Shown: positions 3,801 to 42,400, counted from the first letter of the stretch. The stretch: DNA of 64,000 bases from Balanoglossus misakiensis (GCA_040954595.2 CM082581.2:11654286-11718285); one strand, 5' to 3'. The notes: generated from the letters alone by a model not told the origin. Made by a program: numbers and translations.

Positions 3801-5598
3801 ATTTGGATCAGATGGAAGAGTTTACAGATCCAGTAATGAGAAACAACTAGTGGAAGAAATCGGGAAACTCAAGTTTGAGTTGGCCAAGTCCCTGGATACC
3901 ATTCAGTTGCTACAACAAAGAGAAATTCAGCTGATGTCCAAGTAAGCATATTAAAATTGCTGGTTTCACAGTGCATGGTGAAATATCTTCAAAATCTCCA
4001 TTTCAAACCATGCTGGAGTGAGTGAGTTTAAAGTTCCCTGGAATTGTAAATTTGAGGTTTTAAAAGTCAAACAATGCAATAACCATAGGTTTTATTAGGG
4101 ACGCCAAATGGCTGAGTGTCCTGCTGGGACTGTGTCATTAAACATGTTAAAGTGATTCTTAGAATTCTCACAGTGAAGAGAATAGATTAAAATTCCATTC
4201 CGTTGGACCAATATAATGGAATCGTCCATTAATGGAGGCTAGGACTGACAACTTTCCTCCTCATTGGATACTTATACTAGTACAGTAGCTGTATATTTAA
4301 ATTGTAACAATTTGTGACATTTGTCTCTGCAGGATGCCAAACATGCATTTTTTCACTGACTTTTCTTTGGTTGCGTACATCTGCAGATTATCAGAACAGA
4401 ATCAGAAGCATTCTGGGAAGACAGAGAAACACCCAATAGCACTCATCCATGCCTACACGAAGTTGTACACAGACGCCAGACAGGACGCCTTAGACGCTTT
4501 GGACGAGATGTCTGATTTGGAACAATTTGATGATGCTGATGACATCAAGACAAAACTTCTGTTCTCAGTCATTGTGGTAGGTTTAGCCAAAATTTTATTC
4601 TGCAGTTTTTTTTGTCCTGAAAAAATACAATTCAAGTGTTTATCGTGGAGAGATTTATCTTGCAAGACATCATCAGTAAATAAAAACATCAGTCGTTTTT
4701 TACAATGTACCTCAATGATTAATATGCCACAAGAAAGGCCATATTATAATGCACTTAAAAATCTTTTGTCATGTTTCTTTCCCCCAAATAGCTTTCTTTC
4801 CGCTGTTGTCAAGTGGAGGTTGAAGAGATTCTGGGTGATCTGATAAAAGCTGCACATGTTCCAAACTCTGGGGGCGCCATACAGTCCAACCCACACAGTC
4901 ACTACGTCAAGGAGATGGAAAGTGTCACCATGAAGTATCTCTACAAGACATCATCTGCCTACGATACCACTGTCATTGTTGAGGTAGGTACAATAGTTCT
5001 ATCAAGAGAGCCAATAAGGAAAACTATACTTGTGTAAGGAGAGCATAGTAATAATGTGAAATTGAGCAGATTTACAAAAATGAAATGCTTTTGATTTGCT
5101 GAATTTTCAGCTGTTTAAGAGTTGTAGTTTCATCCTGCGAATTGGGTATGGTTTGCTTGTGATATTAATTTATGGTACATATCAGAAGTTATGACATATT
5201 GTAGCTTATAAATATAATTCTAAGAACTTATTTATACTGATTTTTCCTTTACGTTTTGAATTCTCGTCATTTCACAGAAAGTCTGTGGCCACCTGTTCAA
5301 CACTTTACACGAATACCCCAGCCTGAGAATGTCATCCTCCTTGAAGACATACATCACCACCTGTGTCCGCATCGCTTGGCAACTGAGCACCCACACGCCG
5401 TCTTACGTCATCGACTATGACAGCAAAGAATTCAATCAGGCATTGCACCAAAGATTCCATCGGGACGACTCCTGCAAGAGAATCAAATGCTACCTGTGGC
5501 CGGCTTTGTTGGATGCCACTACTTTGAAGTGTGTTCACAAGGGAGTTGTTATCACAGAGAAAACAGAATCGGAGGAATATGGCGACACTAAATTGTAA
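900..5598 (+). CDS. MIEAP/SPATA18-like (mitochondria-eating protein family), 3' part; 5' exons lie upstream of the window
   Basis: Phase-consistent GT-AG exons: 900-1202, 1937-2011 (probable cassette), 3713-3941, 4387-4576, 4792-4983, 5278-5598 (TAA). Arg/Ser-rich region, then a coiled coil (EKQLVEEIGKLKFELAKSLDTIQLLQQRE), then a MIEAP-like C-terminus (KLLFSVIVLSFR...YITTCVRIAWQLSTHTPSYVIDY...FNQALHQRF...CYLWPALLD...CVHKGVVIT). Orthology to SPATA18 itself is not certain. Confidence 0.8.
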
Positions 5599-7196: not shown

Positions 7197-7266
7197 GGAA
7201 AGTCCCGTGTCATAATCAGAGATGACGTCAGGGGGAAGCCCCTAACAGAATTTCCAGAACGAAAGC
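7197..7266. promoter_or_regulatory. Clustered NF-kB / CRE(ATF) / IRF-like motifs upstream of the helicase gene
   Basis: GGAAAGTCCC (7197-7206) is the exact reverse complement of the canonical kB site GGGACTTTCC. Also a perfect CRE TGACGTCA (7223-7230), kB-like GGGGAAGCCCC (7232-7242) and IRF-like GAACGAAAGC (7257-7266). An AP-1 site TGACTCA lies at 6977-6983. Confidence 0.55.
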
Positions 7267-7549
7267 TGTGCGAACTTATATACATTTCGTAGTTTGTCGT
7301 GTCCTTTATATTCGTATACGGCCCTGAAATCGCGACCACAGTTTTGTTTCCCGACAATGGAGTGTGTAGTGTGTTATTGAAAGCGCGACTCAACCAGAAA
7401 CAAAATCGACGACAACATCCTTCAGCTGCAGCGCGGAAGTATCGACCAACCGTGCCCGTCCCCGGACTAATTAGGTCAGTGAGCGAAGTGTTTAAAAAGA
7501 TCGCTGATCCTCGAAGAGTTTTCATCGTAAAACTTTCTAAACAGTGGCC

Positions 7550-10500
7550 ATGGATCATTTCCGCTGTAAGATCTGCGAAGTTGACGTTTCAGGGGAACGC
7601 AACTACCAACAGCACTTGGAAGGCAAGGCTCATGCTAAAATGAAAGTCCGTATGGGACATTCGAATCCGCCCACTTCCGGGAATTCAGCGACACCTATGC
7701 CAAGTATCACGGCTACATATTTGAAGAGAAGCTTTGAACTTGAGCCATGGGAGCTTCATGCTGGGAATGAGCTCTTCTGCGAAATCTGTCGGGTGCATTT
7801 GACAGGATCTGAACCAGCTGCCCAGCACTATGCTGGTGCAAAACACAAAAAGAAAGCTGACCAAGCAGTTAATTTTTCATCAATTGTATCTGAACGCCAG
7901 CAGAATTCACAAGAAAAACCCCACAGCTACGACATCCAAAGTATCTTTGCGTCAAAACTGAAACTGATAGAAAGACAGCGTAACATCTGTTCAGAGAAAT
8001 CGGATTCTGAAGTTGACTCTGCACCAAGTGAAGATATCCAGCTTAGTGCAGATGATGAAAGTTCATGTAAAATCTGTCAGGTGTCCTTCACCGGCCGAGA
8101 ACCAGCTGTCCAACATTACACTGGTACTAAACACAAGAAGAAAGCTGAAACTGTCAGACTAGCATCGATTAACCGCCTACCAGGGGTGTACTGTGAGGTG
8201 TGTCATATAATGTGTAACACGCACCAACAACTACATATTCACAAGCAAAGTACAAGACATCTGGAGAAGGCTAGCGGACTTAGTGGAGAGTTGGATACAC
8301 AGCAAATATCAACTGATATTGATGAGGGGATTTCGTTTGACTACACCGAGGAATCCTGTGATCTCTGCGGCATTTCCACTTTCACTTCACAACAACACCT
8401 GCAAGACCACTTCTCTGGAAAGAGGCACAAACAGAATGCAGCCAGACAGAAACTGCTGGGCAGTCTACCAGCCGAGAAATACTGCGAGCATTGCAAAGTA
8501 TTTTTGACGTCTGAACAGCAAGCAGCCGATCATCTAAGCAGCCCAAAACATAAGAGTAACGAGGCCAAAGGTAGAAAGGCGCCAGAGAAATCCCTCCCAC
8601 CAATCACTGTTGAAGAGGATGTGAAGTTTGATGGAGCATTGACTTGTAAATCACCCAGGAGTTACCAATGGGAACTGTACAACAAAGCAATAGAGACAGA
8701 TTCAGTGATATTTCTGCCCACTGGTAAATATTCCTTATCTTTGACCTTTGACACATTCTTTGATAACCAATCACATGATTCTCTTGAAATGTGAAAAAAA
8801 ATATGTTGTGACTATATAATATGAGAACAACTGACAACTAAATTTTATATTGATCAACAATGTATATTTTTTTAGTGAATGCATAACAAATTGTCAAAAT
8901 TTTATATCTTACAGGGACTGGGAAAACACTCATTTCAGCAATGGTAATTAGTCACGTCTTGCAACAGAACCCCAAACGACAGATTGTGTTCTTGGTGGAC
9001 CGTGTTTTACTAGTTATACAACAGAGCCAGGTTTTGAAGACAGAGCTGTCTCATCTGTCGATCAATGATCAAAGTGTTCACATCGCAGCCCTCTGTGGAG
9101 AAAAACAAAACACTGGCTCATTACCTCTTCATGAACATCACATCCTGGTCACAACAGCAGGTAAGTTTATGCTAATTATCAGGTGACTACTTTCAGCCAA
9201 TCAGGAGAATGATCTCTTTTGTTACCTTCCCCATTTCCAGTCATATTTGTATTACGTTATGATGATAGTTCATACAACACGGAAAACATCAGCAATCCTA
9301 AAAAAATTATTGATAATTTGAAGATTTCATCCTTATATATAAAGTTAATATCCCAACCTTGTCAGTTTTCTCATCTTTTATGTAATAATTTTATTCTTTC
9401 ACACAGCGTACTACATAAACTTGTTAAAAGATGACGTGATTCGATGGGAAGATTTGTCTCTCGTTGTATTTGATGAAGCTCACCACTGCACCAAGAAACA
9501 TCCTTTCAATGTCATCCTAGAAGATTATTATAGTGAAGGAGAACACAAACCCCGACTGCTTGGTTTGACTGCATCACCAGCAGGCCAACAAACCGTCAAG
9601 AAGACGTACCTCATGCTGCGACAGTTGCTGCTGAACTTCGGCGGTGCCAAGCTTGCGACGGTTCAGAAGACCAAAGATGAACTCCTGCGCTTCAAGACGC
9701 AGGCAGAACCTGTCATCAGGGTTGTGAAGTGGGATAGGCATGAGAATATTTTGGATGAAGAATTACAGATGTATCTGCTGAATTGCTATCAGGTGCTTCG
9801 TAAACAAGCTGATTCTCTCAGCATGTTTGTAGATCTCGATGGTGTTAGTGAAATCAGCAGTGAGAATCTGATAGAGTTTGTAAGAGCGGTCGATCAGTTG
9901 AAATCATTGTACAGGCCAGAAGACACATTTTATCAGTTCTTGAGTCATATCTTTGCCATCGGAGAAGTTCTGGAAACACTGCGGGAGACTGGGCTGGAAT
10001 TTGCGATCGCTGATCTGAAGGAAGTTTTCAAGAGGGACTTGAAGCTTGCTCACAGAATGAAGATTCTCTTGAGCAGCGGTTTGCAGAAGCTGCTGGGCGA
10101 GTATGTGAAGGGAAGCAACGAAATGTCCGGCGTTCATCAGTTACTCAACGAGCTTGGTGACCACATGAACTGGAGCAACGGGATAGCGCTAGTTCTCGTG
10201 AAAATGCGCCGCACTGCACATGCCATCACAGAATTCCTGAATAAATCGTCGCTGGTGCAGGATAAGCGTTGCGAAGCTGTGTGCCTGGTAGGCCATGGTA
10301 CAGGAGGCAAAGATGGCGGCGGCATGTCCGTCAACAAGCAAGGCCGCACGATCCGTCGAATCTGGGAGAACAAGAGCGTCATCGTCGTGGCAACCAGCGT
10401 GGCGGAGGAAGGGTTAGATCTGCCTGAGTGCGATTTAGTCATCGTCATGGACCCCCCATCGACGGTGACCGCTTTGGTCCAGATACGAGGCCGAGCGCGC

Positions 10501-10650
10501 CGGAGTGGCGCGAAGTTCATCGTTCTGTGTCGCGGAAGTGGTCAGCGTGACAGCATGCATGAGTTGTTGTTGAGGGAGAAGAATATGGAAGAAGCTGCAG
10601 AAATGGTGAACAAGGAAACCAGTCCACGTGATCTTGTTTTCATGGAATAG
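7550..10650 (+). CDS. Six U1/matrin-type zinc fingers fused to a RIG-I-like/Dicer-like DExD/H-box RNA helicase (no CARD, no CTD), 887 aa
   Basis: Exons 7550-8723, 8915-9160 and 9407-10650; both introns are phase-1 GT-AG; total 2664 nt. Six CxxC-x12/13-H-x5-H fingers. Helicase motifs: Q (PRSYQWEL), I (FLPTGTGKT, rebuilt across intron 1), Ia (VFLVDRVLLVIQQ), II (VFDEAHH), III (LLGLTASP), IV (LVLVKMR), V (VATSVAEEGLDLPECDLVI) and VI (VQIRGRAR). Confidence 0.93.
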
Positions 10651-11258
10651 TTCTATGTGGTGTACTGACACCAGCCTCATCAGATTAACGCAGATTACTA
10701 GTTTACAAACTTTGTTTGATTCAAAGCACGTTAGATTCAGAATACAGTAGAGTTGCTTAAATGTTTTCTTGACAAAAATAATATGATGCCTGGTTGATTT
10801 TATCTGATTGAACCAAGTAATTCCTTGTGGGTTTTCAACAGTCTTCTTCCCTTCACAAGTAGACATGTATTTACATTAGATATTCTCGTTATAGGATTGA
10901 TATATCTAGAAATGTACTATAAAATAGAATTATGCATATCTGTGATCTGCAGTGGATGTATGTGTACCCATCACAATGAACATGAGAACGATAAAGGTGT
11001 GTTCCAGTTGGAAGTTCATATACACAGTACAAGTTGTTTTGATTCACAGTTATACAAGATTATTCACGTGAAGCCTGTTTCAGTCTATTGTAACTGTAGT
11101 TTGACAGTTTAGCAGATGTACTGAAAATTTTTATCGTCAATAAATATCTGATGCTGACATTATAGCATTACTTGTATATTGTATATTGTTGAAAAAAACC
11201 CTGAATTTTCTGTACCATCCTTCATTGAATTATCCTTCACTGTTTCAGGCTGATCACC

Positions 11259-12819
<1,561 letters not shown>

Positions 12820-27900: not shown

Positions 27901-30900
27901 AACGCGATCGGTATTGATTATCGAAGTGCGGAACTCAAAGTTAAGAAATTACCACGTAAGTGATATTTTTCTTACATTGGGCAAACAGAGGGTACAAGCT
28001 AGTGATTTTAGATACAAGAGGTTGGTGAGATCCACCGCTCGGGGCGCTCTCTACAAGTACCTCAACAAACTTTCACATGCGCTTCCGCCCGTTTCTTTTG
28101 ATTCTGAACCAATGCACATTGTTAATATTTTTACTTTTTGCTGTCTTCTTGCGAGTGAAACCATTTCGTCCGCCAATTAATCAATTTCCCCCGCATACTT
28201 TCAACAGTTGCCCCTGCCTTTACCGAAGTACTTCAAACCAATATTTCGGCCACCGTCGGACAAGACGTGCGGATCAAATGTCCAGTGAAGGGAAGTCCAA
28301 GGCCTTACATCACCTGGATCAAAGATAGCAAACCCATCGTGACCGGTCAAAAGTACTTACCCACCAGGCAAGGTTTGAGAATACTGAACGTGATGTTTGA
28401 GGACAACGGAACGTATTCCTGCAACGTGAGCAACGAACATGGACAGATCACGGGCAATTTCACCCTCACAGTCAACGGTAAGACTGATGATTTCGATGAT
28501 CTTTCAAAACATACAGACAGATAGTCTTCGTGCGCGCTTGTTGTCGAATTTCAAATAGCACCATCCGTATCGTGAGTGCTCATATGAAACGGTGATCAGT
28601 GAGACATGAACTTTCTTGTTGTATGGGGAGAAAAGTGTCTTGTACTAACGTTCTGGTGATCTTAACAGCGCATAATTGATTTTGTTCCGCTTCAGAAGAG
28701 CCGCCTGTACCAAGTTATCTATCGGACGCCAGAAAAGTTGTAATCATTGACCCCGAGCCGCCATACTTTACTGCGGCGCACAAAATGTTGGCAAACGTCA
28801 CCAAGACAAGCGGCGGTTCCGTCAGATTTCGGTGCAACGCCGGAGGCTCTCCTCCCCCAGATATCAAATGGTTTAAAGACGACCACGAGATCAACGTCAA
28901 GGACGTGATGGCTGGCGAGGTACGCTGCTGCGTGGTTGAATGGATGGATGAATGGACGGATGGATACCATTAGGTTTTAGAATGAATGAACGAACGAATG
29001 AATGAATGAATGAATGAATTATGAACATATAATTATAACGTTCACGTATCCTAGTACGTATAGTAACAAATGGAATTTATTTCATACCAACAGACACGTC
29101 ATAAAAAGTGGATTCTTGCCCTAGAAAACATCCACCCATCAGACGAGGGCTTATATACTTGCATAGTGAGTAACCAATACGGGCAAATCAACTACACCTA
29201 CCAACTCATCGTCCAACGTAAGTTGATCAAGCGCTTTATTTAGGCAATAGTATAGCTTTGCTTAAATCTTTACGCTTAGTTTTTTCGGCAGTAAGGGTTT
29301 TAATTAAATGTATTAGTTTTGGAATGTAGAATAGAGGCGAAGGGCTTTTTGTCGAATTTCACGCATCATCTTTGTGAGTTACGTCTTCTAAGTTTGTGAT
29401 AATTTTATACTAGTCTTCTTAGCTTGTTGGTATGCTTCTTAAAATAGGACGTAATATGAATAATAAATCTAATTACTGAGATCCTTCGAGTAGACTCGGT
29501 TCTTGTTACTGATATGTACAATGAGAGAGGAATTATGGTGTGTTCAAATTTTCATGAATACATTGGAGCTGGCAATTTAAGGGAATAAAGTATGTATGCT
29601 TTGACTTTTATTTTAGCGCCATTGATTCTTAAGCCGGGTTTCCCGAGGAATAAGTCGATCCCTGTTGGTTCGCCTGTATCGTTTAAATGTGACGTCATCG
29701 CTACTGACTTGCAACCGAAGATTCAGTGGTTGAAACACGTCACGACAGTTGGGGATGTGGAAAGTGGTGACGTCATCACGCAAATCAAGGTAAAACAGTT
29801 TCCGATTGGTTATGTCAAGTTGTACTGAATGACGATTAAATTTTTTTCCATTTCATTTAATAGTAAACAGTAACGCAGCTTTTACAGTAGTATTATAAAT
29901 CAATGAATGGATCACACATGGCAATTTTTCTCGTTTGATACTTAGAATTTGTCATATTTGATTGTTGAATACAGGACAAATGGATGAACCAGCCGGAGTG
30001 GACCTGTGACGTCATGATAAAGATGCTGTTTCCACGTTCTCCACCCGTTGAGTGCATGGAGCAGGTAACAAGAGTGTTTTATGTGGACACTGTGGGTTTA
30101 CTTTCCAACCTAGCAGGCTTTTTTGCACGCATATATTACATGTCTGCCTTTACTAACAGATAGTTTCATTCTTGCAGCCAACTGTCCAGACGAACGATAC
30201 GACGACCAGCCCAGAGAAGTTGCACTTGTATGACGTCAGTGATGACGACTCGGGAATGTACACTTGTTTGGTTCTAAATGGAACTCAAGTTAAAGCTCAC
30301 CGGAGTGCCTGGCTGTCAGTCATTCATGAAGGTAAGTGTGCGCGTGCGCTAAGGTTTGGACAAGATGCTGCCATTTTCTTTATTACCCTATTTATTTGTT
30401 GACATGGTGAAGATTTGACGGAACGTGGTTGCAATGAATTTGGGATGGGGGACAATGCACAGGAAAGCTTGAGTTGATTTAATTTTCTCGTGGTTTGTTC
30501 AGTTTTAGAGACAACCGAAGCGACCATTTCATTCGAATCGACAAACACCACAGCGGAACCGGAACTCACTCCCGAGACAGCCGCCTGGAAACTAGGCACG
30601 CTTCATTTTATCATCATCGGTGCGGTCGCTGGTGTCGTCGTCACCCTCGTTCTGATGATTGTCGTCTGCTGCTGCATCTGTCGACGTAGGCGGTCACGCG
30701 ACATTTCCCTCTCCGAGTCAAACGGCGTCAAGGAATCTAAGCCCGTGAAAACGCAAAAGGCGAAAACGGAGAAGAAAGGGAAGAAGCGAAATGAAAAGAA
30801 ACAAAAAGAAAATATAGAAATGACTTACGAAAAGGTGAGCACAAAGGGGGACGATGAGATTAAAGAAACAAAAGTTGACGACGCAATAAATGAGGACAAC

Positions 30901-31110
30901 GCGTTGCAGAATGACTCTGGCGGCAGCGTTCAGGAGAGAAATGAAGCGTCCAATGAAACGGAAGAAAACGATCCACAACTCCAAGATGATGACGTCACGC
31001 CGAAAGGAAGGGGAGCTATCGCAGAAGAGGAGACGTTGAGTTCAGATTCTGATTCAGCGGAAGATCCGATGAATCCGGAATCCACTTCGGAACACTCTAT
31101 CGACCTTTAA
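24950..31110 (+). CDS. Kinase-less FGFR-like type I membrane protein with five Ig domains (D2-D3-D1-D2-D3), ~823 aa
   Basis: Exons 24950-25052 (signal peptide, GC donor), 26026-26201, 26879-27002, 27151-27341, 27499-27582, 27805-27955, 28208-28477, 28696-28919, 29094-29217, 29617-29789, 29975-30064, 30178-30331 and 30503-31110; all phases are consistent (2472 nt). FGFR D2 signatures (PYFTSPQKM..., WTLVLEDLVVSDSGSYTC) and D3 signatures (LKPGLP..., IQWLKHV). TM segment FIIIGAVAGVVVTLVLMIVV, then a Lys-rich and acidic tail and a stop, with no kinase. Confidence 0.88.
28980..29019. repeat. (GAAT)n microsatellite, intronic
   Basis: Imperfect GAAT/GAAC tandem run. Confidence 0.85.
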
Positions 31111-35100: not shown

Positions 35101-38100
35101 ACTGACCTTTGCAGCCCCCCTTTCTCCCCTCAAACCAAATGCAGAGATCCAACTTTACTATTAAAAATCTACATTATACGAAATTGTGACAACAAATAGG
35201 TTGGCATGGCAACAGTCTTGGGTTATAAATATGTTGTCTTGTACTAAATTTCATTTCTCATATTATTGACTGAAAGAGAAATTGGAAGTTGTAACAAAAT
35301 AATTTCTCAAAAATGTTTGGAACAAAAAAACAAAACTGGACACTGGATATGTTGGCGGGAATAAGCAGTTGTCAGAGGAGTTAAGTTCAAGTGTGACCTT
35401 TTCACACACTGATCCCAGGATTTTGAATTTCTTATTTATTAGAGAGGATTTTGGTGCTGCTTGGAGGTGCTGCTTGCTAGTCAAGTAGGTGACAGATGCT
35501 CTATAAGCTGGCAATTCCTTTTAAAAATCTGGTAAAACACTGCATGTCATTGACATGAAGAATAAAAAAAAACACCCAGGTACTCAGCCTGATTTCTAAT
35601 CTCTTCCTGGTGACTTTCAACAAATCTCCCTGAAATGGCATTGTTGTTTTAACAGACTATTGGGAAGCTAACATCTCCTTCAGAACTTGTCTATATTCAC
35701 TTCAATCAGGCTGCATTGAGAGAGGTCTTCTCCACCAACAACAGCAAGCCTTCTACTTCTAGCAAACATGGGAAGAATATACAGTCAGGTCCCAACAGTA
35801 TTGCCTGTTGGTAAAACATTTTCAAAGTAGACATTCTGTTAGCAGAGAACTCGGGGAATATGTATGACCCAGTCCTGTGTGCAGTTTTGCTATCCGCTAC
35901 AAGTGGTCAACTTTTTACCCAATATGCATTGCTGTATCATCATATGACCCCCTGGCATCCATAAAGTATTAATATGAAACATCAAGGTGCAGTGAGGCAT
36001 TTAATGCCAAAAGTGCAAAATTGACTGAAAGAAAATTATGCTGACTTTTATTAATGTTATTGCGACATTGGCTTCTTGTCAAGAGAGCGTCTGTTATAAT
36101 AATAAGGATATGTCTTGGACTCTTGCAGTGATGTGTGCCAGTCTGCCTGACGTTAAGACTATTTTTGCTTTACTTCCACGTCTGACCGAAAGACTTTGAA
36201 TGCGCGTCAAAAGGTCACCTTGCCAAGTCTTGTCTGTCAGTCCCTTGGGACTGTGCCTTGACTGCCCTGGCCCGTGAAAAAAGCCCTTTATGTATATGTG
36301 TGTATTCAGGTGGGGCTGTGAAATGAGTGCGGACGGTCTAAAAGTTTTAGAATAAAGCAGAAAAAAAGTCCAGTTGAAGACGATGACCTGACTGCACATT
36401 TGCTGATCTAAAAGGTGCCACTGTGGTGACATGGCAGAGTTTCTAAACAAGGCAGTGGTCTGTGTAGAGGGACCATGGCAGTGGTAATTGAAACTTGAGC
36501 TCTAAAAATGAAACAAAAGATGTTGTGTGTTCTCCATTGAAATTGGGATTAGAATAGTGTGAAAAGAGAAATTGCTGCCTGGGGAATTCCCTGCAGGCTG
36601 TGCTGTAACTAGCCCCTTACTACTTGTTTTTATGGTTGGTGATTAGCACTTTCTCTGACAGCTGCTAATTGGTCATTGAGGGTGAAACAAAAGCAAGGTC
36701 CCAGAGGTCATGCAAATGAGCCACAGAGGATTGCTCTTGCCCTGGGATCTCTTGACTATTGGGAACTTTTGTGAATTGTAAACGACAATAGTGTGTTGGG
36801 AACCCAGCTGTGGGGTTTTTGCTGAGTTGTGAGAATACAGATGAAGTGAACATGAAAAAACATGTGTGGGTATTGTCTAGCAAACATGAAATTCACTGCA
36901 GATGGCCCGAGGAAATAAATCTAGCAGAAGTATGTCAAGTACTAGACTCTCTCACAGTCCCTAGTTTTTCTACATTGGTCTGATTTGCTGTTGTACACTG
37001 CACTGATGCCCCCTAGCGAGGATGGAGCCAGCATTTGCAGAGAAATCAGCCTCTTGCCAGATACTTAGATTGGCCAGCTGAGCTTTGGCGGCTTGCCTTA
37101 GTAAAGAAGGATAAGGCGTTTGAGAAACCATCTGAGTTTTGGGCTGTCAAGGGTCTGTAGTCAGAAGAAGGCATTGTGAAGTGTGACCACAGTTGTACAA
37201 CATTTTATATCACCACGTTGAAATTGAAGAATTCTTTAAGTCCAATAGCTGCAGTGATATTAACACCCATGCAAGAACAAGAATTAAAACAGTCTACATT
37301 CTACTTGTCTGATTTTATTCATGGAAAAATCTAATTTCATTTCTTACTTATCTCTAACCACAAAACAAATACTGGTGGGTTGGTGGATGTTTTCTCCGAA
37401 CTTTGTCATTTCAACCGCTACATGTACTTCTATCAACTCTCCATGAAATTCCACCAGTAATTCTCAGACTCTGTGACTGGAGTGTGTGTCTCTCTGTCAT
37501 GTCCTGGAGGGGGAAATTGTCTTGTGTTTGTATGTTTGCACTCAACCATGATTGACAAACATGTTTGTGTGGTTTCTGTCAAGTGAGAAGCTTCCTTCAT
37601 TATGGCCAGTGTATTACCAAAGGGGATACTAATTACGTTTCAGCGACAGTCCCTGTGCTATTTACTTGTGCATTCATTAACCTGTCTATAAAGGCCAGTT
37701 TAGGAATGTCCCTTGACTGGCCACTATAGGCAGGTTCCACTGTATTACATATCACAGATGTCATTGAATATGAAAATTAACAGTTTGATGAAGTTTTGAC
37801 ATACATTGACGTATGTCAATGATATGTTATCCATCTATAGATAAATGTAACACTGTCTTTATTTTCTACCAGTGGGAATGGTGATGAGGATAATAAGGAA
37901 CCATTTGATAATAAACCTTTCTGCAAGCATCTCAATGAAATTAAAAAATTGTTGCAAAAGGAGGAAGCAGAAACAGAGGAAGTGGTTGAATGCCTTGGTA
38001 AGTGACTCTGCCCCTTTAACCATTGTTTGGTGATGGAAGCTCATTCTTGACTTTGGGATAAGACTCTTCTCCTTTAACCCTTATAGCACCTTGCCTGTCT

Positions 38101-39434: not shown

Positions 39435-42400
39435 TCATTTCTGTCACTTTATTTCATCCAAATTTGACATTCCTGCTTCTCTTAAAAGAGTGCTTATTTC
39501 CAAAACACAATGACAGCGAAACTAGTAGTCATTGGCTGACAGCACTCAATTAGAATATGCTAATTATCATAACAAGGGACTAACAACTCACAGTGTGAGA
39601 TATTATGCTTGATTCCGGCTGAACACACAGTGATGTTTCAAACTGGTAAGTCAGTACTCTCATAATCATGAAAATTTACAAATTGAAAGGTTTTAAAAAT
39701 ATATGCATCAGTCTTTTGTTAGGCAAGATGTGTTTTACTCATCTAGATGTTTAGTACACAATATTTCAAATGAACTAAATTTTATGTTTTTCTACAAACG
39801 ATGCAAAATTGAAAACACAGCCCTTCATGGGATGACTGTGGGTTATTGTCCTAATCTGCAAAATGGAAAGTTTAATTTCTGTAATAAAAGCTTGGGGGAC
39901 CAACTGCAGCACTTCCTAAATTCCTCCGTACCCTGTTCGCAAATTATTTTCAAACTGTGAAGTATTTATTTTGTTGGAGCTGCTACTGCAAAATACACAC
40001 AATGCAGGCATGACTCATTCCCTAAAACTGGTTGCAAACACTCTGTGAAGATTTCCAGCCCTGCTGGCTGATTACCTTCACTTTCTTGTGTATTGCAACA
40101 TTCCAAACAATAAAAAAGGACTTTTTAAATTCTGTCTGTTTTTACCTCCTCCATCACCATTTGGTCCAGTCCTATTGTCTTCAGTGGTATGGTTGAGTCC
40201 TTCTGTTTTGAGAGGTGCAATTTATGGGTTGGCCCATGACGCCATTGGATCGGTGTAGTTGGATGTCTCTGTTTGTCTAGGTTGTACACATGCCAGTTTT
40301 GTCAAGTGACAAGAAATCGCACTTCTGCTAATGATGGAATTAGTTAGCAGGTGCAAGTCTGTAGTCTCCTTCCTTCTAATTAGCAGTCCTGCTTTTTTTG
40401 TTTGAGCCTTGCTGACTTCACTTTCCAACTCCCGTCTCCAGGGAGAAGCAAACGTCAATACCGGTTTGCGCTTGCATCTCTTGGCTAAATCTATTCTGCC
40501 GCCAGATGTTGAAAAAGCCCGTGTTTGCTTGCATATCCTGCCTGTGTGTATTTGGAAAGGGGAAATCCCATACCTGGGGGTGATTAAATTTGTGAAACAG
40601 ATTTCAGGGATTTTCTTGCTGGTCATTTTGTGAAAATAGGTGTGAGCCCTTCTGATCTGTGTTTCTATCCGTGTATTAAAGGGACGCTATCCATATTTTA
40701 TTGTGATCATTTTTACCAGCAGTTTTGATTTGTGAGTACATGTATGCTGATTTTTCAGTTTTTTCTGTCTTCAGTAGAATGTACTGAAAAGCTCAAAACT
40801 TGGTGTGTCACAGACTGTATCAGGGCAGAAGCTAATCTCTGTGTACTTGATACAGTACGTATAACCATTAAAGTGCAAGTATACAGAATATCTTGTAGAT
40901 CAGTAATATTGTACCAAAAAGAACATCATTGCATCATGATTTATGTTTTGACAGATCAGATACTTGTTCAGATCTGTCTTGTAAAAAAATAGATTGATCG
41001 AGAAGTAGGTTGATACATGTATCTGTTTGTGTGTGTGCTTGTGTGTGCAAAACAGCAGCTATGCCTTAATGCAGCATTTGAGATTTTGACTGGCGGTTAG
41101 ACAATTGCTAACATACCAGTATATTATTTTGTAACCATGGTTAATTAAGTAAAGTGGTGATTACACAAGATATTAATCTTGACACATGATGTGTGAACAA
41201 TCAGGATGATGACTTTATTTTATGTACTAAATAAATTACATGGGTACATCACTATCTCTAATGACAACAATGGAGAACTTGTCAACGAGGTTGAATGTCT
41301 TTCATCAGTATTGTCTATGTCTACCAGCTTCCATTTTTTTATGAGAAACATCTTGTCAATGGTTTTTGTAAATCAATCAATCAATTAGATTTGCTGTCTT
41401 ATTTAATTTCCAGCAGATTTCTCAGTCAACTAATAGGCATTCTTCAATGGATGTACCACTTCCTAAAAAAAAAATTATTGGTCCTTTTTTCATTCTTGTG
41501 TATCACATGTACTTAATTTTTATTGCTGCATATCATTTTATGTTTGGAGTTGCGTACACAGAACATGACTAATTCAATTTTGTTACCCCTTCTGTGTGTA
41601 CATTTTCATATAATTTTATTAAAGCTACAACGGCTCTGAAATTCAATACGATTTTAATTCAGTAAAACTCAGTTGTGATACTTTTTTGTTCAGCTGCAGT
41701 GTATTTTGAAGCACTGGCGATGAAAGTGTCCAAACTAATCTGTGTGAAAATATTAGTCTTAGGCTAGTCTTTAAAGAATAAACCATCTTGATTTTTTCCC
41801 CTTCATATTTTTATAAATTCCAGGTTATTAGCCTGCCCTCTTGAGGCTATAAGGGGCACATGAAAGCTATCTATATTTGTAATCAAGTTTTCATTATAAT
41901 GTGTGTTTATGTGTCAGTTCCAAACTGAATAATCACAATATAGGATACCCATTTTATCAAATTGTGTAGGAGCTACTCCTATTGAAACTTTATATATATA
42001 CAAGGCTTCAGAGTTTTTTTTGTAATCAAAATCCTTCTGTTAACTGTAACCAAATTGAAGAGATTGCAAAATACAAATATACCGTATGTAAGTTTTTTGA
42101 AACATATTACAGAATTGAAAGACTGATTATACACAGATGTTGACCTTATGGAACATGGCTGTTCATAGACATTATTCAAAACCTTAATTTCCATATCATA
42201 TTGAAGATGCTGCCATACTTGATATAACTCAAGTGAAATGTAAATTTTTGGTTACATAGCTTAATTAAATTCTGTAATACAATCTGTGTGGCCATACTTG
42301 TCTGCAGAAAGTTTTGAGTGTTTGCTTTTTAATGTTTTTGGTAAATTAAGCCAGATTTAAATTTATATTCTGCATTATGAACAGACCAATTGCAAACATT

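Follow-up and report, generated by a model that had tools for sequence, protein, structure and literature searches.

The 64,000-nucleotide (nt) stretch of Balanoglossus misakiensis DNA analyzed here (GCA_040954595.2, CM082581.2:11654286-11718285; below, the window) carries a three-exon gene on the + strand whose predicted protein joins six N-terminal zinc fingers to a helicase of the class that includes Dicer and RIG-I (Table 1). On the sequence evidence, this gene is real and conserved, and belongs to a zinc-finger helicase family of long standing in animals. The initial annotation had described it as a RIG-I-like helicase in which the fingers replace the CARDs and the C-terminal domain (CTD).

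Joined, the three exons give 2664 nt, encoding 887 amino acids (aa) uninterrupted by stops up to the terminal one, which is the intact open reading frame (ORF) originally proposed. Both splice junctions align without gaps to the orthologs of Ptychodera and Glandiceps (identical residues 20/21 and 18/21, and 16/21 and 16/21, over the two junctions), and the protein is 60% identical to that of Ptychodera flava across 892 columns, with neither junction gapped. Many fragment matches of ~400 to 450 aa (P0121-P0145) begin where exon 3 begins in the window, hinting that intron 2 may be conserved across the family.

Splicing before the stop onto CTD or RNase III exons, a possibility raised at the outset, was rejected: the only donor-like site found by pattern between 10301 and 11300 lies past the stop, at 10817, the next gene encodes a phosphatase, and the 3' end is conserved. 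A gene-model artifact, or a truncated Dicer or RIG-I-like receptor (RLR), was also rejected, because the position of the stop is conserved among homologs. As for fingers and helicase belonging to separate transcripts, the relative P0036 is a complete transcriptome ORF holding both, and they therefore lie on one transcript in that relative.

The zinc-finger array

The six CxxC..H-x5-H fingers span aa 6-334, and their number is far from what composition alone yields, with a mean of 0.0095 and a maximum of 1 among 2000 shuffles of the exon 1 protein. Searched as three exon pieces, the protein matched the Pfam entries zf-met in six stretches (E 3e-31) and zf-C2H2_jaz in five (E 4e-22). Linkers between the fingers are 18 to 73 aa long (median of 39 over 179 family linkers). 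Among 216 family fingers, 97% have glycine or serine three positions past the first histidine, and the fingers have a basic tail. The only sequence matches of the array in the PDB were ZNF346 and dsRBP-ZFa, both weak (E 0.006 and 0.008). In the AlphaFold model of the Ptychodera ortholog (P0001; mean pLDDT [predicted local distance difference test] 72), the fingers adopt a two-helix, helix-kink-helix form, with fingers 3 and 4 unresolved. The array thus displays the CxxC..H-x5-H pattern, long linkers, and helix-kink-helix form of JAZ/ZNF346-type fingers. In ZNF346, the helix-kink-helix contacts double-stranded RNA (dsRNA) (PMC10957929).

The distance from the final finger to motif I is 49 to 69 aa in 31/35 family members measured, and this constant spacing suggests that the final finger may have a fixed docking role.

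The helicase core and C terminus

The helicase region matched ResIII/DEAD and Helicase_C, and no Pfam match at E<=0.1 was found in the three exon pieces for CARD, RIG-I_C, RIG-I_C-RD, DUF283, PAZ, RNase III, or the dsRNA-binding domain (dsRBD; dsrm), just as the initial annotation had expected of the zf-met/jaz, helicase, CARD, and CTD entries. Motifs Q, I, Ia, Ic, II (DEAHH), III, IV, V, and VI are all present, with the Walker A lysine, TAS, and QxRGRAR intact, so that the complete superfamily 2 motif set read at first stands. The stop sits 49 aa past motif VI, close to the ~50 aa first estimated. Past Hel2, the P0001 model has one long helix, corresponding to the first pincer helix only, which agrees with the pincer-like helix noticed in the sequence. 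The Hel1-Hel2i-Hel2 fold is present in the same model (RLR structures matched at E~1e-25), a fold common to Dicer and Hef as well.

A zinc-finger helicase family in animals

We searched exon 3 against proteins of 724 to 2065 aa, scoring 7987 candidates. Among the best 120 of these, 41 family matches had E values from 5e-159 to 1e-45, after which values fell to 3e-35. All 41 homologs carry fingers (1 to 13 in each), none of them beyond motif VI, and none of the 41 matched CARD, RLR, or RNase III Pfam entries. The tail past motif VI is 39 to 56 aa long in 37 of the 39 homologs readable by pattern, the exceptions being 86 and 520 aa (the latter with no additional Pfam domain); in the 37-row set used for trees, it is 39 to 60 aa long in 35.

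Named members come from eight phyla: Porifera (Corticium and Sycon), Cnidaria (Oculina and Montipora), Mollusca (many), Brachiopoda (Lingula), Nemertea (Lineus), Platyhelminthes (Macrostomum), Echinodermata (the crinoids Anneissia and Antedon), and Hemichordata (Ptychodera and Glandiceps). The layout first noticed in the window is thus widespread. Vertebrates, tunicates, amphioxus, annelids, arthropods, and nematodes were not among the named matches of the word-filtered searches or of an exhaustive search (best 150 of 4285, many of them without names, 30 of which were looked up), which is not proof of absence. Automatic database names conflict, with members called RIG-I-like, Dicer-like, or DHX58-like and "uncharacterized" being commonest. 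True RLRs coexist with the family in several of these species (for example, P0285 in Ptychodera, P0260 in Glandiceps, and P0262 in Lingula). In FastTree, the branches of the family roughly mirror those of the animal tree, and each species has few copies; Spongospora P0443, which has no finger match, is placed within the family by a very long branch, and its membership is unsure. Members P0147, P0185, and P0376 (a cluster from the coral Montipora and one further protein) have a Z-alpha domain on the N-terminal side of their fingers.

No description of the family was found in open full-text literature (PMC and bioRxiv), although supplements and subscription journals may mention members. Within those limits, the initial view that this architecture is not one recognized from a characterized protein appears sound, and the family is apparently undescribed so far.

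Phylogenetic position

Helicase cores were cut with a mixed profile, which 364 sequences passed; 142 were chosen for FastTree, with near-duplicates and fragments left out. The family formed one group, adjoining HelF-type helicases and then helicases fused to an RNA-dependent RNA polymerase (RdRP), apart from Dicers and RLRs. Two maximum likelihood (ML) trees were also made. Tree 1 (IQ-TREE, mixture model) used 484 columns and 43 rows picked by hand so as to leave out the longest branches, while tree 2 used 36 rows without the Hel2i columns; the rows common to both are the window protein, HelF, one Hef, and a cluster mate of the Balamuthia row. Dicers were represented by fungal, ciliate, algal, and further sequences. 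Supports in tree 1 were 100/100 for the family, 96/92 for the family with HelF-type helicases, 88/84 with RdRP-fused helicases added, 98/92 for Dicers, and 98/94 for RLRs. In tree 2, the family received 100/99 and its union with HelF-type and RdRP-fused helicases 94/91, and that clade joined the Dicers at 99/96. With the 43-row set, approximately unbiased (AU) tests spoke against joining the family to RLRs (p=0.037), Dicers (p=0.032), or archaeal Hef (p=0.012), each a modest rejection. The window helicase accordingly falls outside the RLR clade in FastTree and both ML trees (DRH being absent from these trees) and outside the non-animal Dicers sampled in both ML trees.

Signature motifs, counted in the 142-row set with patterns picked after the consensus had been viewed, follow the same lines. 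Motif III reads TASPA in 30/37 family members, 7/8 HelF-type and 11/16 RdRP-fused helicases, but in 0/28 RLRs and 1/28 Dicers. DECH, found in 28/28 RLRs, occurs in 0/37 family members, which have DEAH instead; NEI ahead of motif VI occurs in 22/28 RLRs versus 0/37; and the LGxW motif of Hel2i occurs in 17/28 Dicers versus 0/37. Against the PDB, the family profile scored 286 bits with the ancestral Dicer helicase (AncD1D2), 249 with DCL1, 230 with MDA5, 227 with RIG-I, 214 with LGP2, 199 with Hef, 185 with human Dicer, 180 with DRH-1, and 137 with FANCM.

Taken together, the family appears best filed beside HelF within the Dicer/RLR-class dsRNA helicases, and not as an RLR; the RIG-I-like descent first proposed found no support, since the helicase lies with HelF-type and RdRP-fused proteins in the trees and lacks the RLR signature motifs. 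We also observed several helicase-plus-CTD proteins branching at the base of the RLRs (P0358, P0360, P0365, P0366, and P0367).

The N-terminal slot of the nearest relatives

After the family itself, the next matches were dsRBD-bearing helicases and helicases fused to RdRP. The P0442 cluster is Dictyostelium discoideum DDB_G0294407/Q86L44, listed under the name HelF and with a dsRBD at the N terminus (PMC4894637). Deletion of helF renders cells hypersensitive to RNA interference (RNAi) (PMC2175303), and the title of Popova 2006, in the reference list of that paper, names HelF a nuclear suppressor of RNAi. HelF-type proteins have dsRBDs ahead of the helicase and often behind it too, and their tails resemble the DUF283 region of Dicer (hhalign probability 90%); the C-terminal tails of RdRP-fused helicases matched neither DUF283 nor HelF tails (probabilities 0.1 and 0.05).

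A profile of the RLR CTD, built from 27 RLRs and run on a 36-sequence set (cutoff, independent E value [iE]<1e-3), matched the N terminus of 9/19 RdRP-clade helicases and 1/7 HelF-type proteins, and matched 0/10 members of the zinc-finger family. The N-terminal ~120 aa of helicase-RdRP proteins (P0043, P0044, P0046, P0048, P0163, P0164, P0173, P0207, and P0225) aligned to the RLR CTD at an hhalign probability of 97%, with a weak match to PF11648. In the Atlas, this domain lies among Yippee/RLR-CTD-clan clusters; as all scores were <0.9, we label it CTD/Yippee-like and nothing firmer. These fusions have an RLR-type reader ahead of the helicase rather than behind it. In addition, P0167 (Balamuthia mandrillaris, 880 aa) has a CTD-like domain, a helicase, and a C-terminal dsRBD without RdRP or RNase III, and P0173, P0192, P0194, and P0234 are helicase-RdRP proteins with a poly(A)-polymerase-like nucleotidyltransferase domain past the RdRP.

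That the N-terminal slot of relatives holds dsRBDs, an RLR-CTD/Yippee-like domain, or Z-alpha supports a dsRNA role for the family. Given the grouping of the helicase with HelF-type and RdRP-fused proteins and its lack of RLR signature motifs, the fingers more probably replaced a dsRBD or other reader in a HelF-like ancestor than the CARDs and CTD of RIG-I. Thus, of the proposal of a distinct dsRNA sensor or effector whose fingers replace the CTD, the distinct family stands and the dsRNA role is likely, while substitution in a RIG-I-like ancestor is not sustained.

Upstream region and neighboring genes

Approximately 310 nt upstream of the ATG lies a candidate cluster of NF-kB-like sites and a cyclic AMP response element (CRE). 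It is a single site (4 tiles) among 635 overlapping 500-nt tiles of the window and recurred in 0/20000 resamples of the upstream 500 nt. Across the window, both motifs are overrepresented relative to shuffles (observed versus expected, 11 versus 3 and 9 versus 0.9). As the patterns were selected after the sequence had been seen and both motifs are enriched window-wide, we regard the cluster as a lead only, by which the gene is possibly NF-kB inducible. Other strong NF-kB-like sites lie at 36581-36591 and 40559-40569, and five CRE palindromes fall within 1.3 kb (29690-30997). Of 13 sites in the window resembling interferon-stimulated response elements, none is near the zinc-finger helicase gene.

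The start codon of the downstream phosphatase gene is preceded by a splice-acceptor-like site near 11249; its first exon may therefore overlap the helicase gene's 3' untranslated region (UTR).

Table 1. Features of the zinc-finger helicase gene and its surroundings, with positions counted in the window
Feature	Position	Strand	Remarks
Coding exon 1	7550..8723	+	Start ATG, six zinc fingers, linker, Q motif, first half of motif I; ortholog alignment gap-free at junction
U1/JAZ-type zinc finger 1	7565..7633	+	aa 6-28; Pfam and pattern
Zinc finger 2	7778..7846	+	aa 77-99; Pfam and pattern
Zinc finger 3	8066..8134	+	aa 173-195; top PDB sequence match is a ZNF346/JAZ finger (2mkd, E 0.006)
Zinc finger 4	8192..8260	+	aa 215-237; pattern
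Zinc finger 5	8357..8428	+	aa 270-293; Pfam and pattern
Zinc finger 6	8483..8551	+	aa 312-334; 54 aa ahead of motif I
Predicted intron 1	8724..8914	+	191 nt, GT..AG, interrupts motif I; sequence and ortholog alignment
Coding exon 2	8915..9160	+	Remainder of motif I, Ia, Ib, beginning of Ic
Predicted intron 2	9161..9406	+	246 nt, GT..AG; sequence and ortholog alignment
Coding exon 3	9407..10650	+	Motifs II, III, Hel2i, IV, V, VI, single C-terminal helix, stop
Motif II (DEAHH)	9472-9486	+	Exon 3
Motif VI	10480-10500	+	Exon 3
Candidate 5'-UTR intron	7475..7544	+	Ends 5 nt upstream of ATG; in-frame TAA just upstream of donor; read from sequence
Candidate polyadenylation signal	11139..11144	+	Sole AATAAA/ATTAAA within 10401-11400
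Candidate promoter cluster	7197..7242	.	NF-kB-like 7197-7206, CRE 7223-7230, NF-kB-like 7232-7242
Upstream gene	4301-5598	+	MIEAP domain
Downstream dual-specificity phosphatase gene	11259-12819	+	Splice-acceptor-like site near 11249, ahead of start codon

Proposed function and alternatives

Binding of dsRNA together with ATPase activity is very likely for this protein. Beyond that, the reading we prefer, with slightly less than even confidence, is by analogy with HelF: an ATP-driven clamp on long dsRNA that would modulate RNAi. The widely spaced fingers would bind duplex RNA without sequence preference, like those of ZNF346/JAZ, and their capture of the duplex would load the Hel1-Hel2i-Hel2 ring without the CTD, DUF283, or dsRBD of its relatives. 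The ring would then hydrolyze ATP and travel along or remodel the duplex, altering access of Dicer, RdRP, sensors, or other dsRNA-binding proteins. We favor action through dsRNA access because the protein has no signaling or nuclease domain, and a brake over a helper because HelF, the nearest characterized relative, acts as a brake on RNAi. The upstream kB/CRE cluster would render the gene infection inducible.

Several observations weigh against this reading. In tree 2, the order among the family, HelF-type, and RdRP-fused helicases is an open fork with no specific sister link to HelF, and in tree 1 the wider clade including RdRP-fused helicases reaches just 88/84. The trees lack animal Dicer, DRH, and FANCM/Mph1 and are rooted on a long Hef branch, and the AU rejections of union with RLRs and Dicers are modest. 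Exon 3 is just 27% identical to HelF, so function may have drifted. Foldseek with the P0001 model ranked RIG-I/MDA5 at the top (E 8e-26, template modeling [TM] score 0.46) and the ancestral Dicer helicase below them (E 2e-22, TM 0.40), and an Atlas structure search also ranked RLR clusters first; the folds compared in these rankings are common to the whole helicase class. Loss of helF left microRNA processing unchanged (PMC4894637). U1/matrin fingers, moreover, occur in proteins involved in splicing, too, and do not necessarily bind dsRNA.

It is conceivable, if rather unlikely, that the protein is instead an inducible antiviral dsRNA protein outside RNAi, either a signaling-independent effector by which viral dsRNA would be coated or cleared, or a regulator, like LGP2, of the true RLRs of the host. 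The kB/CRE cluster, the lack of a CARD, the true RLRs in the same species, the Z-alpha domain of coral members, the fold closest to RLRs, and the variable finger number would all fit such a role, but trees and motifs set the family apart from RLRs, no CTD was detected by profile (0/10), and the promoter motifs are post hoc and overrepresented window-wide. We consider it unlikely as well that the protein is a positive RNAi cofactor, a free-standing form of the helicase module that is joined to RdRP in other eukaryotes, which would provide RdRP or Dicer with ATP-driven dsRNA handling in trans, much as DRH-1 serves Dicer in nematodes. HelF, the sole characterized free-standing relative, suppresses RNAi (PMC2175303); on the other side, the next-closest proteins among the matches listed are helicase-RdRP fusions, the top PDB profile match is the ancestral Dicer helicase at 286 bits, Dictyostelium RdRPs bear a helicase that its Dicers lack (PMC4894637 and PMC2175303), and RdRPs are probably ancestral in molluscs and deuterostomes (PMC6396948). 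Among the three roles suggested initially (MAVS-independent effector, LGP2-like regulator, and RNAi cofactor), it is the RNAi-linked one that gains most.

A housekeeping remodeler of the cell's own structured RNA (splicing or repeat-derived duplexes), like other matrin-finger proteins, would account for the zf-U1/zf-met fingers and for a family whose branches roughly mirror the animal tree and whose copies are few in each species. It is nevertheless a very improbable explanation: every placed relative whose role is known or evident is an RNA-silencing protein, and vertebrates, arthropods, and nematodes are not among the named matches. Least credible by far is a DNA branch-migration translocase of the FANCM/Hef kind whose fingers bind DNA. 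Motif II is DEAH as in Hef, and an Atlas feature search placed Hef/Mph1-type clusters first with every score <=0.87; against this, the AU test rejects union with archaeal Hef, there is no ERCC4 domain, the fingers match dsRNA binders, and FANCM scored lowest among full-length helicase matches (137 versus 286 bits). We therefore rejected this identity, which had been named at the outset as one that would undo the original proposal, eukaryotic FANCM being compared by profile score alone.

Taken further, the HelF-like reading leads to a broader scenario, somewhat less likely than not, in which the family would be an inherited third animal lineage of Dicer/RIG-I-class dsRNA helicases, a counterpart of HelF with a finger array reading the RNA, ranging from sponges to hemichordates, immune inducible, and setting the gain of RNAi in the many invertebrates with uneven dsRNA silencing. 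The CTD-like domain of RdRP-fused relatives may likewise represent a circular rearrangement of the RLR layout, with a bearing on the origin of the RIG-I CTD.

Significance

The dsRNA helicases of animals are usually taken to comprise Dicer and the RLRs. To these the family would add a third branch, whose members come from sponges, corals, and molluscs, from one brachiopod, one nemertean, and one flatworm, and from crinoids and hemichordates. A survey of RLRs required the CTD in its screen (PMC8998645; "zinc" is not mentioned in the part of the text available to us), and would therefore have filtered the family out. If the protein is HelF-like, knocking it down in oysters, mussels, snails, and corals could alter both the efficiency of RNAi and antiviral responses to dsRNA. 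That readers have been swapped within a single helicase clade (fingers, a dsRBD, Z-alpha, or a CTD-like domain) is also informative about the origin of RLRs.

Comparison with known systems

ZNF346/JAZ and dsRBP-ZFa share with the window protein the widely spaced H-x5-H fingers, but to our knowledge neither carries a helicase. The helicases of RIG-I, MDA5, LGP2, and invertebrate RLRs have in common with it the Hel1-Hel2i-Hel2 fold and first pincer helix, and are its top Foldseek matches; in contrast to them, the window family has no CARD, CTD, or second pincer helix, has DEAH rather than DECH, lacks NEI, and forms a separate clade. The Dicer helicase is nearer than that of RLRs in the rooted trees, with AncD1D2 and DCL1 the top PDB profile matches, but the window family has no DUF283, PAZ, RNase III, or LGxW, and its union with non-animal Dicers is rejected.

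The RdRP-fused helicases (Dictyostelium Rrp type) belong to a common helicase clade with the family (88/84 and 94/91) and share its motif III, yet are fused to RdRP and bear an RLR-CTD/Yippee-like N terminus instead of fingers. The closest likeness is to HelF and the amoebozoan dsRBD-helicases, which also combine an N-terminal dsRNA reader, a linker, and a Dicer-class helicase with no nuclease and no CARD, are sister to the family in tree 1 (96/92), and have motifs Ia (VD-R) and III (TASPA) in common with it. They differ in that the readers of HelF are dsRBDs and those of the window protein, which has no dsrm match, are zinc fingers, and in that HelF-type proteins end in a tail of 130 to 150 aa with a dsRBD/DUF283-like domain, versus 49 aa in the window protein.

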